Of a DNA stretch of 44,613 nucleotides, positions 1,289-9,093 are shown one piece after another. The DNA lies in the sequence record NC_027383.1; one strand, written 5' to 3'. The stretch is from Escherichia phage YD-2008.s. How positions within the stretch are numbered: position 1 is the first letter of the stretch; the number at the start of each line of letters is the position of its first letter. The notes beneath the pieces are model-generated. The model was not told the origin of the DNA. It worked only from the letters and a program-made list of their open reading frames with translations, and made no database searches. The position numbers were made by a program, and so were the translations under genes.

Positions 1289-2713
1289 ATGGCAAGATTC
1301 CGACGTCGCGAATATCAGAAGTTGATAACCGCGTTCATCCTCAAGCATAAGCGATGTAATATCTGGGCGACAATGGGGTCTGGTAAAACTGGCGCAACCA
1401 TGTGGGCGCTGAATAAAATGTTCCAGACCGGCATCCTGTCCAACCAGGAGGACCGCGTACTGGTGCTGGCCCCTCTGCGCGTTGCATCCGGCACATGGCC
1501 CCCGGAACAGGAAAAATGGCGTTTCCCCGCCCTGCTGGTAGTAGACGGCACCGGGTCAGAGAAGGACCGCATCGCTGCGCTTGAGAGTGACGCTAACGTG
1601 GTTTGTATTAACTATGATGTAGTTGAGTGGCTCGTCGAGTATTGCGGCGACGAATGGCCCTTCACGGTAGTTGTTGCCGATGAATCCACTAAGCTGAAAG
1701 GCTATCGAAGCAAGCAGGGAAGTAAGCGCGCCCGTGCGCTGGCGGCGATCGCACATAAGCACGTCAAGCGCTGGATTAACCTGACCGGCACACCCGCACC
1801 AAACGGGCTGAAAGACCTATGGGGTCAGACGTGGTTTGTCGACGGTGGCGAACGCCTCGGTAGTAGCTATAAGGCATTCACGGATCGCTGGTTTATTAGC
1901 AAGCCTGTTAAGCCTGGCAGCTTTACTATGCAGCACGCCCCGCTTAAGAACTCCGAGAAAGAAATCCAACAACGCCTGTCCGACGTGTCGTTAACAGTTG
2001 ACGCGGCTGAATACTTCGGGTGTGACAAGCCAATCTATACGCCGGTTGTAGTGGACCTGCCGAAGAAAGCCCGCAAGATTTATGACCAGTTCGAAGCGGA
2101 GCTATTTGCGGAACTGGAAAGCGGAACTGTGGAGGCGGCGAACGCTGCGTCGAAGACTATTAAGTGCCTTCAGCTTGCTTCGGGGGCCGTGTATAAAGTC
2201 GACGAAGACGGCGAGCGCACCGACGAATGGGTGAAAATTCACGACGCTAAACTGGACGCTCTGGAAAGTATCGTGGAGGAGTTGAACGGCGCACCGTTGC
2301 TCGTCGCGTACCAGTACAAGCATGACCTGGCGCGTCTCAAGAAGAAATTTCCGCACGGCGTTGCGTTGGGCAAGGGTAAGCAGGGCAATAAGGATATGGA
2401 AGCGTGGAACAGAGGCGAGATCCCCATCATGTTTGCGCACCCGGCATCGGCGGGCCACGGCCTTAACCTGCAGGACGGCGGACACCACCTTGCTATCTTC
2501 TCAGACACCTGGAACTTTGAGCACTTTTCACAGATCGTCGAACGTATTGGGCCTGTTCGCCAGATGCAAGCCGGACACCCTCGTCCGGTATTCGTCTACA
2601 TTATCCAGGCGCGTGGCACACTGGATGAACTGGTCGCGGAGCGTCGCGACAGTAAGCGAAACATTCAGGACGATTTAATGGAATACATGAAAGCTAAAAA
2701 GGCGCGCAAATGA
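1289..2713 (+). CDS. SNF2/DEAD-like superfamily 2 DNA helicase
   Basis: 474 aa; Walker A MGSGKTG, DExx box VVADESTKL, C-terminal helicase motif AHPASAGHGLNLQ. Confidence 0.8.
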   Translation: MARFRRREYQKLITAFILKHKRCNIWATMGSGKTGATMWALNKMFQTGILSNQEDRVLVLAPLRVASGTWPPEQEKWRFPALLVVDGTGSEKDRIAALESDANVVCINYDVVEWLVEYCGDEWPFTVVVADESTKLKGYRSKQGSKRARALAAIAHKHVKRWINLTGTPAPNGLKDLWGQTWFVDGGERLGSSYKAFTDRWFISKPVKPGSFTMQHAPLKNSEKEIQQRLSDVSLTVDAAEYFGCDKPIYTPVVVDLPKKARKIYDQFEAELFAELESGTVEAANAASKTIKCLQLASGAVYKVDEDGERTDEWVKIHDAKLDALESIVEELNGAPLLVAYQYKHDLARLKKKFPHGVALGKGKQGNKDMEAWNRGEIPIMFAHPASAGHGLNLQDGGHHLAIFSDTWNFEHFSQIVERIGPVRQMQAGHPRPVFVYIIQARGTLDELVAERRDSKRNIQDDLMEYMKAKKARK

Positions 2714-3405
2714 TTATCTGGTCATTGTTTGACGGCAGCGGCTTGATGATTGAGCGTGCTGCCGAGATGGGGCATAAGTGTTATTGCTTCAACTACTCCG
2801 AAGCCGATCACGGGTCGTACCTTGATTACCGGATTTATGGTCGCGGGATCCGATATCGCAATGAGTTTATTGATCTGGACTTCGTGGACCGCGCGATGAA
2901 TGGTGATTTCGGCACGCCGGATATCATCTATGCATTCCCGCCGTGTACGGATCTGGCGGTGAGTGGCGCGCCAGCTTTCCCGCGCAAACGCGCCCGCGAC
3001 CCTGCCTTCCAGCTTAAGGCGGTGCGCACCGCGAAGATTGCAGCTTACCTGGGTGATTTCTTCGAAGTGCCATATATGATTGAGAATCCGCGCAGCGTGC
3101 TTTCTACCCAATGGCGTAAGCCAGACCACTCGTTTGACCCGTGGGAGTATGGCGGCTATTTGCCGGAGGATGACGTGCACCCGCTCTTCCCGGAATACAT
3201 CAACGCCCGCGATTCATATCCGAAGCTGACCTGCTTATGGACCGGCAACGGCTTCCGTATGCCAGAGAAAAAGCCGGTATTCGTTGAAAAAGGGTACTCG
3301 AAGCAGTATAGTCGCCTCGGAGGCAAATCAGCCCGCACCAAATTAATCAGGTCGCCCACCCCGCGCGGCTTCGCAATCGCAGTCAATGAGGAAAATTTAG
3401 AATGA
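2710..3405 (+). CDS. DNA (cytosine-5)-methyltransferase, compact form
   Basis: 231 aa; motif I LFDGSG, catalytic Pro-Cys motif FPPCTDLAVSG, ENV-like IENP; ATGA overlap with helicase stop. Confidence 0.65.
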   Translation: MIIWSLFDGSGLMIERAAEMGHKCYCFNYSEADHGSYLDYRIYGRGIRYRNEFIDLDFVDRAMNGDFGTPDIIYAFPPCTDLAVSGAPAFPRKRARDPAFQLKAVRTAKIAAYLGDFFEVPYMIENPRSVLSTQWRKPDHSFDPWEYGGYLPEDDVHPLFPEYINARDSYPKLTCLWTGNGFRMPEKKPVFVEKGYSKQYSRLGGKSARTKLIRSPTPRGFAIAVNEENLE

Positions 3406-4049: not shown

Positions 4050-4514
4050 ATGAAAATTTTACAAGAAGAAAAAGATTACTGGGCCGCGCAATGCCTCGAA
4101 GCCCGCGAACAGGCCGAACGTGCGAACGCGCTGGCAGATACCTACCTGTCAAGCTATGAAACGGAAGAAAAGCGTCGCATGGAGTTAGAGGAGCGCTTCG
4201 AACTGCTTTTCGAACTGATGGGGATTATGCAGCGCACCGGATACACCACCAGCGTTGCACTAAACCGCGTCACGGCGGATGCGTTGCGGGAGCACTGTAA
4301 ACGTGCGGAGGAGTACGTGCGACCGAAGGGCCGCCAGTCTAAGGTTGACCGGAAAGACCTTGTGCTTATGGCGTGGCGCAACCCTACAAACGGCAGCTTC
4401 TACCCGGACGCGCGCCCGCTTAGTGCTGAGGAGTCAAAGCGCGTGCAACGCATTCTCAAAACCGGCAATAAAATCGCCCTGTATGCGATAGATCCAGACC
4501 ATGCAGAAGAGTGA
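4050..4514 (+). CDS. hypothetical protein (154 aa)
   Basis: ORF tightly packed in the plus-strand early operon; charged, helix-rich N-terminal half. Confidence 0.5.
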   Translation: MKILQEEKDYWAAQCLEAREQAERANALADTYLSSYETEEKRRMELEERFELLFELMGIMQRTGYTTSVALNRVTADALREHCKRAEEYVRPKGRQSKVDRKDLVLMAWRNPTNGSFYPDARPLSAEESKRVQRILKTGNKIALYAIDPDHAEE

Positions 4515-4986
4515 GCAAAAAGATAGCTGGCGCACGCCGCCAGCTTTATTTAAACCGCTGCGCCGGAAGTACAGATTCCGTTATGACATGGCGGCGAGCG
4601 ATGCCAACCACCTGCTACCGCGTTACTTCACGGCGGAGCACAGCGCGCTCGATGCGGACTGGTCAGAGTTGAAAGGGTGGAAGTGGTGCAACCCGCCGTA
4701 TTCCGATCCGCTGCCGTGGGTCGAGTGCGCGGCGCATGGACGTCGGACCGTCATGCTACTGAATCAGGACACGTCGACGAAGTGGGCTAAGCTGGCCCGG
4801 AAGACTGCAAACCTGATAATTCTTCTGGACTGGCGGATCCGATTCATACATGCAGTCACCGGTGAAGTCGGGCCGAGCAATAACAAGTGCCAGCAATTGA
4901 TAATCTTTGACGAAGCGCCACCCAGCGGCAGCGCACGAATTGAAATAATGAGCGAAGGAGAACTCCTTGAATATCTTAGTCGTTGA
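4501..4986 (+). CDS. DNA N6-adenine methyltransferase, phage Dam-like family
   Basis: 161 aa; catalytic NPPY motif (WCNPPYSD); overlaps neighbours. Confidence 0.7.
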   Translation: MQKSEQKDSWRTPPALFKPLRRKYRFRYDMAASDANHLLPRYFTAEHSALDADWSELKGWKWCNPPYSDPLPWVECAAHGRRTVMLLNQDTSTKWAKLARKTANLIILLDWRIRFIHAVTGEVGPSNNKCQQLIIFDEAPPSGSARIEIMSEGELLEYLSR

Positions 4987-5191
4987 TCGCAGTCCGCGAG
5001 TCGTGGACGAAATTGTTAAACGCTACCAAATTAATCCGAGGGAGAACAAAGTGCGGCGGGTCAGCCGCCCGGAGCAATTGCTCGGCCTGGACCTTACCGG
5101 TTGGCTTGTAATGACGGCCCGCTGCCATCTTGTGTGTGACACGTTTTCTGCCCGTATTGTTCGTGAAAATTTGATTGAGGAATTGAAATGA
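4967..5191 (+). CDS. hypothetical protein (74 aa)
   Basis: ORF overlapping both neighbours in the early operon. Confidence 0.4.
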   Translation: MNILVVDRSPRVVDEIVKRYQINPRENKVRRVSRPEQLLGLDLTGWLVMTARCHLVCDTFSARIVRENLIEELK

Positions 5192-5658
5192 AATTACTGA
5201 TTTGCGATTTGGATGGAGTTATTAACGGTTCAAGCGATGCGCGCGCTGACCTGGTGCCGGGTATAAAAACTAAATCCACCTTTTGGGCGAAGTGGCACAA
5301 AGCGCACGTCCGCGAAGACCTGAACATGGATATGCTGCCGCTACTGCGCATGTATAAAGAGCAAGGCTTCGAGATCGCGTATCTGACCAACCGGCAGCGA
5401 GAATGTTGGGACACCACCGCCGAGCAATTGGAGGTCTTCCCGGTAGGCCGGTTGTTTATGCGCCACATGCTGGACGACACCCCGCCGCCTGAGTTTAAAG
5501 CGTGCGCCGTGTTCAAAATGGTATGCTACGCGGACGTGTCGGAACTTGTCATCATTGAAGATTGCGAGAAGAACATCGCGGCAATTCGTCGGGCGTGTGG
5601 TGATTTGGTCCCGAAAATTTACGCAATAAACGTTGCAAAATTCACTTGCAACCAATAG
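5188..5658 (+). CDS. HAD-superfamily phosphatase/nucleotidase-like protein
   Basis: 156 aa; N-terminal DxDGV motif (LICDLDGVINGS) typical of HAD motif I. Confidence 0.55.
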   Translation: MKLLICDLDGVINGSSDARADLVPGIKTKSTFWAKWHKAHVREDLNMDMLPLLRMYKEQGFEIAYLTNRQRECWDTTAEQLEVFPVGRLFMRHMLDDTPPPEFKACAVFKMVCYADVSELVIIEDCEKNIAAIRRACGDLVPKIYAINVAKFTCNQ

Positions 5659-5675
5659 GTTGGTTGCACTATAGT
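5646..5675 (+). promoter_or_regulatory. sigma70-like promoter TTGCAA-N18-TATAGT overlapping an inverted GCAACCAAT/ATTGGTTGC box pair
   Basis: -35 5646-5651, -10 5670-5675; inverted repeat GCAACCAAT agg TTGGTTGCA inside the spacer. Confidence 0.45.
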
Positions 5676-5722
5676 AAACGTGTCGGAGGCAATACTGCCC
5701 CCTCACTAAAAAGGGTAATACT

Positions 5723-6277
5723 GTGAAAGCATACGAATACTGCAAAAACGCTGCCACCACTATGGAACAGCGCGGGAAAGAAAACGGCTATGACAACGCG
5801 AAAGAAGAACGCAGCGCTAAACAGATCGCCGCCGTGTTTAACGCGCTTACCGGTCGCGACCTTACCGAGCAAGAAGCCTGGACCTTCCTGATCTGCCTGA
5901 AGCTGGTGCGCCAGCACCGCAAGCACCAGGAAGATAACATCGTGGATCTGGTGGCGTATGCCGCCCTGCTGGGCGAGTCTTACATGACCGTTCATGATGA
6001 GATTCAGATCGATACAACGGCAGCACAATTCGATAGCCTCAAAGGCCTGTCCGTGCGCCTGGACGGCGAGATTAATGCGTATAACAGCGCAATTCGCGTT
6101 GCAGAGGACACGGTGGCCTCGTTCGGCAAGACGGTTAAGGCCACCAATTTTGGAGTTGTAGCCCAGGACGTCCAGCCTATGGTCGTGCTCACCGGCGAAG
6201 ACGGATCGAAAATCTGCATGACGCAGGAAGATTTCCGTAACATGGAAAAAACACTGGTGACTGGCGCACTTAAATAA
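5723..6277 (+). CDS. hypothetical protein (184 aa)
   Basis: GTG start with AAGGG RBS ~7 nt upstream; follows its own promoter. Confidence 0.5.
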   Translation: MKAYEYCKNAATTMEQRGKENGYDNAKEERSAKQIAAVFNALTGRDLTEQEAWTFLICLKLVRQHRKHQEDNIVDLVAYAALLGESYMTVHDEIQIDTTAAQFDSLKGLSVRLDGEINAYNSAIRVAEDTVASFGKTVKATNFGVVAQDVQPMVVLTGEDGSKICMTQEDFRNMEKTLVTGALK

Positions 6278-6319
6278 TTCTAATCGCGGGCTTCGGCCCG
6301 CATCAATGAGGGGTTCACA

Positions 6320-6895
6320 ATGTACGGCGAATATGAAATATCTGGTAAACAATTCCACCTGGCGGCAATGATAGCAAGCATCGAGTTTGACCAGTGGCGG
6401 TATAAGTCCGACGCGTGCAAGCAAAGCCGTCTTGTCGGTGTGCTGGGCGAAATGTTTGCAGGCATGTACCTCGAAGGCCAGGCGGGCGGGCGTAGTTGTA
6501 TCCCGCAAGGTTTGCTAATGCGTACCGGCCTGTTTAGCGCTAATACTATCGACCGCGGCGATATTATCATGGTCGGCAAGCGCAAGGTAAAATCCGGCCC
6601 CGACTTCCGAGAACATACGATTGATGCCGTCTGGACATACGAGGTCAAAGCTACCAGCGGCATCCGTCGCGGGCTGGTTGAGGCACGTTGCGCTCGCGAA
6701 TACCTTACCCGTCGCGTTGCCGGTGTTATCCTTGTGGGCGTAGATTTCGGGCAACATAGCGCGCGCGGCGTGATCGAGGATATCGCGGAGCCATACGTGA
6801 TAGTGAACGACTGGCCACTGGTGGAAGTGGATGGTAAGGAATACTACGAAAGCCCGCTGGTGCGGCGCAAAATGGACTGGGAGAACTCAAACTAA
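6320..6895 (+). CDS. hypothetical protein (191 aa), possible PD-(D/E)xK-like
   Basis: GAGGGG RBS before ATG 6320; DIIMVGKRK...TYEVKAT weakly resembles a D...E-x-K nuclease signature. Confidence 0.45.
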   Translation: MYGEYEISGKQFHLAAMIASIEFDQWRYKSDACKQSRLVGVLGEMFAGMYLEGQAGGRSCIPQGLLMRTGLFSANTIDRGDIIMVGKRKVKSGPDFREHTIDAVWTYEVKATSGIRRGLVEARCAREYLTRRVAGVILVGVDFGQHSARGVIEDIAEPYVIVNDWPLVEVDGKEYYESPLVRRKMDWENSN

Positions 6896-6916
6896 AAAAG
6901 GGGCCGTATGGCCCCT
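6896..6916. terminator. bidirectional intrinsic terminator between convergent genes
   Basis: AAAAAA GGGGCC gtat GGCCCC then T-rich; T-run on the minus strand, A-run on the plus side. Confidence 0.6.
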
Positions 6917-6921
6917 CCTAT

Positions 6922-9093
6922 TCATTTCTTCAGCGCCGCGATCTCGGCCTCCATAGCCTCGATCTTCTGCATCAACACTTGCACAACGTGCATGGTGTCC
7001 AGTAACAGCGGGGTAGTATCCAGTTCTTTCTGCGTTACGTCAGGTGTGTCACTGGTCAGTCCAGAGTATGTCCGGGTCTTGACGTAAAGACTATCCACAA
7101 CTTCCGCTTGTTGTGCAACGAGGCCGCGGCGTTGACGACCTTGCGTGTCGTTATTGTACACAAACGTGTGGAACCTTAACGCCTTGATATTACTCCACGC
7201 TTTATCAACGGTTGTAGGCGTGATGTCATGTTTCATATTGGCATCAGACACAGCACTTGTGACGAACTGGTAGTTGCCGGACGTACCTGATGATGCCGGG
7301 GCACCGTCTGCGGTAAAAGAAAAGGTTCGTTCGGTTACACCTGCGTCCTGTAGCACTAGCTGGTGACCACGGGTTGTCGCGTTACCACCAATCTGTCTGA
7401 ACGAATACGACAACGTTTCGTAGTTTACAGCGGTTCCAATTTTATAGGTCGACTTGATCATGCCCCCATTCACGGTGACACCGGATACTGGTGACGTAGT
7501 GTCTGCGTTTTCAACACTCCACGACGTATTGGCCGCTACGAATCCACCGGATGCACGGATCACCCAGACGCCTACGAAGTTACGGCCCATAATTTCATCG
7601 GTAGATCTTCCGTAGATAGGGTTTGACTGCGATGCGTCAACCACGAGGGTATTAAAGCGTCCGGATACTAAAGGTACAGTAGTTTCCGGAATTGCAACAC
7701 CTGCTCCGGCAGGGAATAGGTCGTTGTTTGTTTTAAATGCACCTTCAGTGATATCACTGAATATCTGAGCGTATGTCGATGCAGAATAACCAGCAACACT
7801 GCCAGAGATATTAGGTGCTGCTGATTCAAAAATCTGACCATTTGTGGAAGAAGTACCGCCATCACCACGACCATACAAGCCGGGTATTGAGTTAACTTGT
7901 ACACCGTTACGGTCGGGTACGCGAAACGTTGTCGTACCATTACCGAGCGAGTATTTACCGCGTTTTGCTGGGTCTGCCAGCCAGTCGGCGTCACTGATAG
8001 GTGAGAGCATCTGAGCATAAGCCCAAAGTTCAGGCCAGTCAGCGCGGTTAAGAAGCTGCCCGTCTGAGACGACTTCATAAGGCTGAATATATGCGCGACT
8101 ATCACGCAGGTGGAAGTCGCCGACACCGTAGTTCATCACGCCATTCATTGTTGGGCCAACTGTGCCCGTGTTAATCATGTTCTGCACCCAGCGCTTAGTA
8201 ACGGCGTCGTAGTCGTTAACTGGGTCGCCAGCAAGCGGCGTGGCCCCATCCGGGCGAACGTTAAGCCAGGCTTGCGGTTTGTCGGTGAGTCCTGCCAGGT
8301 TGCCGGATTTGGTTAGCAGGTCATCCACGTTTACGCTTTTCGCCCACTCCTCGGCCTCGTTACGGTATCCCAGCGCGGCATCACGGGCGGCTTGCGCATC
8401 AGTCTTCGCTGTATTAGCCTCGTCGCGAATAACGCCGGTGTCAGTCTTGATCTGGTTCGTTTGGTCTTTGATCGCCTGCGTATCAGCCTTAATCTGGGCA
8501 GTCTGCGTCTTTATGGTATTAGTGGCGTCGTGGATCGCCTGCGTATCGGCCTTGATTTGGTTGGTCTGCGTCTTGATGGTATTGGCATCGTTCTTGAAGC
8601 CTTCGGCCTCATTGCGAAATCCTTGCGCTGCTGCTTCAGACGCGGCGGCTTGTTGTTGTAGGTTGCGCATTTCAACGGGGTCGATCTGCTTCATCAATTG
8701 CGACAGGTAGCCCCATGACATACCCTGCATAACTTGCCCGTTGGGCAGCGTAACGGTGATCTCTTCAGCGTCGCCGAAGATTGCACGCCAGTTGTTTTCA
8801 TCCGCAATCATCAAGCGCAATGCTTTCTGTGCCTGGACTGTTACGCCCATCGTCGCCAGTGACATGGTATCGCGCGCAACGCCATCCCAGGCAAGGCCGG
8901 TTGCCGTGGGGCCGTCGAACGGCAGCACCAGCGTAAGCGCGGTGTCGCTTTCGACGGACGCGATAGCAACAGTGTAAGGGACTTGCCCCACCACCAGCGT
9001 TAAGAAGTCGCCAGCTTTAAACGCGGTGAACGTCGTGCCGACACCGACTACCGCCTTGCTGTTATTCGTTACGGATAGTGTACCCGCTGCCAT
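6922..9093 (-). CDS. tail fibre protein with C-terminal intramolecular chaperone (peptidase S74-like) domain
   Basis: 723 aa; 21-aa tandem coiled-coil repeats (NTIKTQTNQIKADTQAI...); C-terminal ~105 aa starts with an S-D-x-x-x-K motif (SDANMKHDI) and ends in a coiled coil. Confidence 0.65.
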   Translation of the reverse strand: MAAGTLSVTNNSKAVVGVGTTFTAFKAGDFLTLVVGQVPYTVAIASVESDTALTLVLPFDGPTATGLAWDGVARDTMSLATMGVTVQAQKALRLMIADENNWRAIFGDAEEITVTLPNGQVMQGMSWGYLSQLMKQIDPVEMRNLQQQAAASEAAAQGFRNEAEGFKNDANTIKTQTNQIKADTQAIHDATNTIKTQTAQIKADTQAIKDQTNQIKTDTGVIRDEANTAKTDAQAARDAALGYRNEAEEWAKSVNVDDLLTKSGNLAGLTDKPQAWLNVRPDGATPLAGDPVNDYDAVTKRWVQNMINTGTVGPTMNGVMNYGVGDFHLRDSRAYIQPYEVVSDGQLLNRADWPELWAYAQMLSPISDADWLADPAKRGKYSLGNGTTTFRVPDRNGVQVNSIPGLYGRGDGGTSSTNGQIFESAAPNISGSVAGYSASTYAQIFSDITEGAFKTNNDLFPAGAGVAIPETTVPLVSGRFNTLVVDASQSNPIYGRSTDEIMGRNFVGVWVIRASGGFVAANTSWSVENADTTSPVSGVTVNGGMIKSTYKIGTAVNYETLSYSFRQIGGNATTRGHQLVLQDAGVTERTFSFTADGAPASSGTSGNYQFVTSAVSDANMKHDITPTTVDKAWSNIKALRFHTFVYNNDTQGRQRRGLVAQQAEVVDSLYVKTRTYSGLTSDTPDVTQKELDTTPLLLDTMHVVQVLMQKIEAMEAEIAALKK
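8405..8600. repeat. ~63-bp tandem coding repeats inside the tail fibre gene
   Basis: GATCGCCTGCGTATC(A/G)GCCTT(A/G)AT...GTCTGCGTCTT(T/G)ATGGTATT repeated about three times. Confidence 0.6.

Follow-up and report, generated by a model that had tools for sequence, protein, structure and literature searches.

Two operon-end genes of a Dhillonvirus: a DUF6378 protein and a predicted small PD-(D/E)xK endonuclease

Between positions 5,723 and 6,895 of the Escherichia phage YD-2008.s sequence (NC_027383.1; 44,613 nucleotides (nt), the whole of which we refer to as the window) lie two adjacent open reading frames (ORFs), ORF1 and ORF2, both labelled merely ‘hypothetical protein’ in all of the records that we inspected. 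Our overall account is that these are operon-end genes, the first encoding a DUF6378 protein and the second an accessory endonuclease with a predicted PD-(D/E)xK fold; taken as a whole, we give it a probability of roughly 0.6. The two reading frames are found at the coordinates given in an earlier first-pass annotation, made from the sequence alone, and are collected with the surrounding features in Table 1.

A search with the 1.9 kb spanning both genes matched 154 phage records at 80–99% nucleotide identity, mostly in the 90–95% band. Nearly all are Dhillonvirus phages of Escherichia or Shigella (HK578, EP23, SO-1, SECphi4/18, BASEL Bas85 and others) with genomes of 44–45 kb, and on the strength of these matches the 44.6 kb window is therefore taken to be essentially the whole genome of an HK578-like Dhillonvirus. 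In annotated relatives, a rightward replication/DNA-modification operon runs in the order DNA polymerase, endonuclease VII, helicase, C5-methyltransferase, HNH endonuclease, a protein of 154 amino acids (aa), Dam methyltransferase, a 74-aa protein, a HAD phosphatase, ORF1 and ORF2, and is followed by a convergent tail-fibre gene; ORF1 and ORF2 are its final two genes. A strong bidirectional terminator hairpin, conserved in relatives (z = −3.3 on the plus strand, −3.4 on the minus strand), comes right after ORF2, and the pair therefore closes the plus-strand operon, much as the first-pass annotation had proposed. Several records with these genes have host labels that do not suit a genome of coliphage type: ‘Acinetobacter phage NJ01’, a phage assigned to Campylobacter, and a contig of 47 kb within an assembly of Brucella melitensis. 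Contamination or mislabelling is the probable cause.

Judged by their pattern of substitution, both are real genes under strong purifying selection: measured against Dhillonvirus relatives, the ratio of non-synonymous to synonymous substitution rates (dN/dS) is 0.02–0.09 for ORF2 and 0.02–0.07 for the N-terminal domain of ORF1, and the long antisense ORF that overlaps them is therefore a shadow ORF. The GTG start previously assigned to ORF1 also stands; a Shine–Dalgarno-like sequence is suitably placed upstream, and the same codon is GTG in five and ATG in three of eight sequences (the window plus seven relatives), an alternation that supports position 5723 as the true start. An annotation of ‘cohesive ends’ running across ORF1 in SECphi4 proved to be just an arbitrary assembly edge.

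For ORF2, a weak ‘D…E-V-K’ pattern had been put forward as a hint of a PD-(D/E)xK nuclease; a hint that family-wide conservation and structure prediction both bear out. In an alignment of 17 members, reaching down to 22% identity, D81, the E108 and K110 of E108-V109-K110, and E44 are all invariant, alongside G40, G64, R68 and I161; D102 is conserved among close relatives only. Working from the N-terminus of an AlphaFold2 model (generated with an alignment of seven sequences; predicted local distance difference test (pLDDT) score 82.7, predicted template-modelling (pTM) score 0.81), we see a helix (34–54) that carries E44, a first strand (59–61), a second (82–85) with D81 directly before or at its start, a third (104–112) bearing E108 and K110, then a further helix (122–130) and a final strand (135–143). 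This is the canonical α-β-β-β-α-β core of restriction-endonuclease-like proteins, with E44, D81, E108 and K110 each at its canonical position.

The nearest solved structures are I-Ssp6803I (2OST), D212 (2W8M), Hjc (2WCW, 1GEF) and the influenza PA-N endonuclease; what ORF2 has in common with members of the superfamily is the core topology, the E…D…ExK signature distributed over the core helix, the start of β2 and β3, and a size of ~120–190 aa. Similar structures more widely comprise the influenza and thogotovirus PA endonucleases, fusellovirus D212, MspI, SwaI, NhoI, HincII, DpnI, Eco15I, archaeal Hjc, Rai1/DXO and catalytic subunits of the tRNA-splicing endonuclease, together with two matches to the non-catalytic Sen15. 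Running Foldseek on the predicted structure, a check suggested by the first-pass annotation, returned from BFVD many uncharacterised phage proteins of 150–200 aa, two of them labelled restriction endonuclease. We consider it very likely that ORF2 has a PD-(D/E)xK fold with an intact active site.

At the level of sequence, ORF2 matched no family in Pfam or NCBIfam, none of the 17 members matched Pfam at E ≤ 10, and searches of the PDB with the sequences and family profiles of both proteins gave chance matches only. Its sole match in PHROGs is phrog_10558, which has no assigned function, and in PADLOC its catalytic region marginally matches the C-terminal part of TmtA (E = 0.016). The family is small: a word-indexed search of 5.8 billion proteins gave seven clusters, and a profile search run exhaustively over 1.84 billion representatives (E ≤ 0.001) gave only 15 proteins. 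By tblastn, ORF2 is found in essentially all Dhillonviruses, in ~39 Klebsiella siphophages (~48 kb genomes, ~31% identity) and in a few Enterobacter/Kosakonia phages, with a few metagenomic phages also carrying family members. Going by these searches, ORF2 defines a small, unnamed family inside the very large PD-(D/E)xK superfamily; it is therefore an addition to a known type of enzyme rather than a surprise. Separately, tblastn matched the C-terminal 37 residues of ORF2 (aa 155–191; 6782–6892), with 84% identity, to unannotated sequence close to the end of phage mEp021 (54408–54518); this may be a recombination remnant beside a tail-fibre module.

ORF2 would, on this evidence, be a small metal-dependent PD-(D/E)xK DNA endonuclease. 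By analogy with solved members, D81 and E108 would hold Mg2+, the role of K110 would be to position the water that attacks, and the core-helix residue E44 would make the site complete; fold and motif together are what suggest this cleavage chemistry. One candidate role for such an enzyme is that of a structure-specific replication or recombination nuclease (an Hjc-like resolvase, or a flap/fork nuclease) processing branched phage DNA before packaging. All genomes examined, however, already have a dedicated resolvase-type gene—endonuclease VII in the Dhillonvirus SM_S22, RusA directly upstream in relative L005, VRR-NUC in relatives L003 and L006—and SM_S22 also has a dedicated exonuclease adjoining a Gp2.5-like annealing protein; a role as resolvase or recombination exonuclease would therefore be redundant. 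As Hjc and related profiles were also among those that the 17 members failed to match, we regard this role as unlikely.

A free-standing homing endonuclease of the I-Ssp6803I kind, that is, a selfish element, is a second candidate, but one at odds with the way in which ORF2 is distributed. At least 80% of the ORF2 query is covered in 190 of the 199 phage records that match; the gene is 94–99% identical in most records, sits at one constant locus in each relative examined and interrupts no gene. Taken with its dN/dS, this is what one expects of a fixed core gene, and we consider a homing enzyme highly improbable. With ORF2 a fixed core gene, and with an endonuclease VII and a recombination exonuclease present elsewhere, the role of an accessory endonuclease is therefore favoured.

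The distant relatives of ORF2 are always in phage replication/recombination modules, at or near the end of an operon: one comes after Dam, DUF7334 and a 92-aa protein (47 kb phage contig), another after RusA (27 kb contig), whilst that of Klebsiella phage vB_Kp3 is a few genes past a DNA methylase and immediately ahead of the lysis genes. A Dam gene lies no more than 6 kb from the ORF2 homologue in five out of five contexts, Dam being common in such modules. As to what the accessory endonuclease would cut, we lean slightly, and only tentatively, towards non-phage DNA (the host chromosome or competing elements), because two methyl marks are written from the same operon and a phosphatase lies two genes upstream; the operon's two methyltransferases could plausibly give self-protection and so discrimination between self and non-self. 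That ORF2 might instead trim or otherwise process replication intermediates is doubtful, if only a little more so.

Two known systems serve for comparison. Like a Type II restriction–modification system, the locus combines an endonuclease fold with C5- and N6A-methyltransferases; unlike one, it has the methyltransferase genes elsewhere in the operon instead of adjacent to ORF2, and its carrier is a virulent phage, so that any restriction-like activity would therefore be offensive, not defensive. A more specific proposal, that ORF2 is a methylation-sensitive endonuclease cutting host or rival-phage DNA devoid of the phage's C5/N6A marks—or, as a variant, that it is the Dhillonvirus protein that trips Retron-Eco7, by cutting the multicopy single-stranded DNA (msDNA) of that system—strikes us as distinctly improbable; were it true, ORF2 and the methyltransferases would make up an ‘attack’ restriction–modification module of a virulent phage. 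The second comparison is the pre-early takeover of phage T5, which involves A1-dependent degradation of host DNA and the Dmp 5′-deoxyribonucleotidase. Here the likeness is the proximity of phosphatase and nuclease genes in a virulent siphophage; the differences are that no homology to T5 A1 or Dmp was detected, and that the Dhillonvirus genes are at the end of a replication operon, not in a first-step-transfer region.

The first-pass annotation could name no family for either protein, which holds for ORF2 but not for ORF1, where aa 16–85 match Pfam DUF6378 (PF19905) with 39.3 bits against a gathering cut-off of 27.1, covering profile positions 13–79 of 81. All 20 of the ORF1 family members match PF19905; among Pfam, NCBIfam and PADLOC, DUF6378 alone was matched, and in PHROGs ORF1 hits phrog_9871 (E = 3e-124). 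Three parts can be discerned: the DUF6378 domain, a linker of variable length (aa ~95–150) and a conserved C-terminal module (aa ~150–184). The first of these is what ORF1 has in common with DUF6378, phrog_474 and phrog_1167, including the residues invariant across homologues (R17, G18, N21, G22, Y23, E29, R30, F39, N40, R45, E49, W53, K60, R63, K67, D71, N72, D75, Y79 and E85), whereas the linker and C-terminal module are additions of its close relatives. Homologues fall into 125 clusters and range from 112 to 235 aa (130–199 aa for those > 60% identical), with an in-frame insertion/deletion hotspot at aa ~100–150 (~6020–6170); in Shigella phage 1b the homologue carries EIQIDTTAAQFDSLKG duplicated in tandem. 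The C-terminal module (~35 aa) is found in close relatives and is unalignable in more distant homologues (alignment A2). The AlphaFold2 model of ORF1 is poor (pLDDT 54), with the domain predicted as four helices; ORF1 would be a compact helical domain followed by a variable linker and a small C-terminal module. From its invariant basic and acidic residues, the helical domain probably binds a phosphate-bearing ligand, either nucleotide or nucleic acid.

Homologues of DUF6378 are present in 371 phage records, always within replication modules, and include members of the Schitoviridae (N4-like), Guernseyvirinae, Kantovirinae (Xanthomonas phage NEB7) and Eiauvirus (Edwardsiella phage eiAU), as well as Vibrio phages. 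In phage Pollock the gene comes directly after DNA polymerase and before thymidylate synthase; in a Vibrio N4-like phage, as in one of Faecalibacterium, its immediate neighbour is ThyX, and in Carvaje a dUTPase gene lies beside it. Exonuclease/PD-(D/E)xK nuclease genes adjoin it or are one gene away in both Vibrio phage 1.238.B and eiAU, Philippe having it in the equivalent gap between polymerase and primase, and in a Jersey-like Pantoea phage it is the last gene ahead of the tailspike. Other neighbours include ThyA, ribonucleotide reductase and N4 gp42-like exonucleases. The label ‘phosphofructokinase’ attached to phrog_474 and phrog_1167 appears unfounded for DUF6378, as none of our results supports it: neither a kinase domain nor a match to PFK in Pfam was found.

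These neighbours in replication modules suggested that DUF6378 might be an all-alpha nucleoside triphosphate (NTP) pyrophosphohydrolase, akin to MazG, dUTPase or dCTPase, and that the HAD phosphatase, this enzyme and the nuclease would together make up a cassette for nucleotide processing comparable to the T5 arrangement. Consistent with this are the four predicted helices with their invariant acidic and basic residues, the proximity elsewhere of ThyA/ThyX, dUTPase and ribonucleotide reductase genes, the phosphatase directly upstream of ORF1, and the T5 precedent of host-DNA degradation coupled with Dmp. Neither a lenient hmmscan nor hhalign against Escherichia coli MazG gave any support, and we think this assignment improbable.

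Several observations weigh against our account. ORF1 and ORF2 are adjacent in the Dhillonvirus-like clade only; at the loci examined outside it, relatives of ORF2 have no DUF6378 neighbour, their small upstream proteins not being DUF6378, and DUF6378 occurs alone elsewhere. The idea of a coupled pair was rejected for these reasons, functional coupling between ORF1 and ORF2 therefore not being supported. Within ORF2, the segment from D81 to E108 is variable in length and poorly ordered in the model (pLDDT < 50 at 88–90 and 96–100). The signs pointing to host DNA are slight, and the one indirect indication points the other way: ApeA, a defence system that senses dinucleotides from DNA breakdown, does not stop Dhillonviruses, which are resistant to it. 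The methyltransferase genes are 1.3–3.6 kb upstream of ORF2, and our literature search found no documentation of host-DNA degradation by a Dhillonvirus. The same search found neither biochemical or genetic data nor an assigned function for either gene.

Table 1. Positions of ORF1, ORF2 and associated features in the window
Feature	Position	Strand	Details
ORF1	5723–6277	+	GTG start, 184 aa
ORF2	6320–6895	+	ATG start, 191 aa
DUF6378 domain of ORF1	5768–5977	+	Pfam match, invariant columns
Predicted catalytic codons of ORF2	E44 6449–6451; D81 6560–6562; E108 6641–6643; K110 6647–6649	+	
Shine–Dalgarno-like AAAGGG of ORF1	5710–5715	+	7 nt before GTG; AAAGG(G/A) kept in relatives
Shine–Dalgarno GAGGGG of ORF2	6308–6313	+	6 nt before ATG; read from sequence
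Candidate sigma-70 promoter of ORF1	5646–5675	+	−35 TTGCAA (5646–5651), 18-nt spacer, −10 TATAGT (5670–5675)
Perfect 9+4+9 palindrome (22 bp)	5647–5668		TGCAACCAA-TAGG-TTGGTTGCA; overlaps −35 hexamer and spacer
GC-rich leader hairpin of ORF1	5680–5706	+	core GGAGGC-AATACT-GCCCCC at 5685–5702
Intergenic hairpin, ORF1–ORF2	6286–6301	+	GCGGGC-UUCG-GCCCGC; fold −13.6 kcal/mol; no U-tract in window
Bidirectional terminator hairpin	6899–6916	both	AGGGGCC-GTAT-GGCCCCT; terminator scan; common to convergent tail-fibre gene
C5-methyltransferase	2710–3405		same operon as ORF2
154-aa protein, anti-Tmn homologue	4050–4514	+	matches phrog_10530, labelled ‘DNA ligase’
Dam (N6A) methyltransferase	4501–4986		same operon as ORF2
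74-aa ORF between Dam and HAD phosphatase	4967–5191	+	TTG start; size and position match Ksap1
HAD-family phosphatase	5188–5658	+	DxDG motif aa 7–10
Convergent tail-fibre gene	6922–9093	−	
Antisense ORF	5669–6508		279 codons; overlaps ORF1/ORF2

Upstream of ORF1, the candidate promoter is unremarkable by consensus, with nine of 12 matches; the 7 kb scanned holds nine such sites where chance would give 5.9. The two hexamers nevertheless do not differ among the seven Dhillonvirus sequences compared, unlike the bases adjacent to them; in a distant metagenomic relative (L006, with an ORF2 57% identical) the promoter is missing, and the ORF1 homologue there comes directly after the upstream gene. 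From this conservation the pair probably has a promoter of its own, as was first claimed for ORF1; a claim that stays plausible but unproven, the hexamers being conserved but the consensus match just moderately good. The palindrome that overlaps the −35 hexamer is present in one copy in the window, and so in the genome, with none expected by chance, and forms the main stem in the fold of 5640–5725 (−25 kcal/mol, z = −2.3). It is conserved, and in phage Envy (L011) takes the form of the exact reverse complement, with loop CCTA; this suggests an orientation-independent element, for example an operator or an RNA hairpin.

The leader hairpin (−12.1 kcal/mol, z = −1.4) has a counterpart at the same position in all seven Dhillonvirus sequences; variants of the stem include a mismatch or G-U pair, and no clean compensatory changes were seen among the seven. 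The intergenic hairpin is kept in all relatives examined, the distant metagenomic one included, in which ATTTT comes next. It may act as an attenuator or in RNA stability, and may set the expression of ORF1 relative to that of ORF2. No Rfam family was found anywhere in the window, and a search for repeats over 5600–6950 gave nothing more than short matches consistent with chance.

Three of the genes further upstream also deserve mention. The 154-aa protein and CDS0035 of phage SM_S22 share 84% identity; going by gene numbers, CDS0035 is the ORF35 published as anti-Tmn (PMC11846954), and the ‘DNA ligase’ label of phrog_10530 looks like an annotation artefact. The 74-aa ORF has L47 and T50, the residues altered in published escaper phages, and corresponds in size and position to Ksap1, a Dhillonvirus protein and direct activator of the Avs2 immune sensor of Klebsiella (KpAvs2; PMC11564622). 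The HAD phosphatase matches phrog_415, labelled ‘polynucleotide kinase’, in PHROGs (E = 2e-36) and, below threshold, both acid phosphatase B and the PNKP phosphatase domain in Pfam.

That ORF2 sits beside arms-race genes (the anti-Tmn homologue and Ksap1) raises the possibility of its own role being mainly in the arms race, either destroying a defence nucleic acid such as retron msDNA, or as the Dhillonvirus trigger of Retron-Eco7. According to PMC12640716, this retron is triggered by the T5 flap endonuclease, which cuts msDNA, and by a protein of unknown function from the Dhillonvirus phage98, which the text consulted leaves unnamed. Each Dhillonvirus genome has > 30 proteins of unknown function, making the prior for ORF2 low, and the high conservation of ORF2 is unlike the variability usual in anti-defence genes; on balance we think an arms-race role very improbable, and retain the accessory endonuclease as our preferred reading.

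It is routine for phage genomes to carry orphan PD-(D/E)xK nucleases and DUF proteins, and our results for ORF1 and ORF2 are useful annotation that overturns no expectation. What is new is a small PD-(D/E)xK family absent from both Pfam and NCBIfam, whilst for DUF6378 recognition as a regular part of phage replication modules, with its unsupported ‘phosphofructokinase’ label, allows annotation to be cleaned up across hundreds of genomes. Dhillonviruses are common coliphages that figure in the BASEL and SECphi collections as well as in research into phage therapy and bacterial defence, and the operon that ends in ORF1 and ORF2 already has two characterised arms-race genes, those for the KpAvs2 trigger Ksap1 and for anti-Tmn. 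With a confidently predicted fold and active site in hand for ORF2, a ‘hypothetical protein’ of ~200 phage genomes becomes a testable enzyme.

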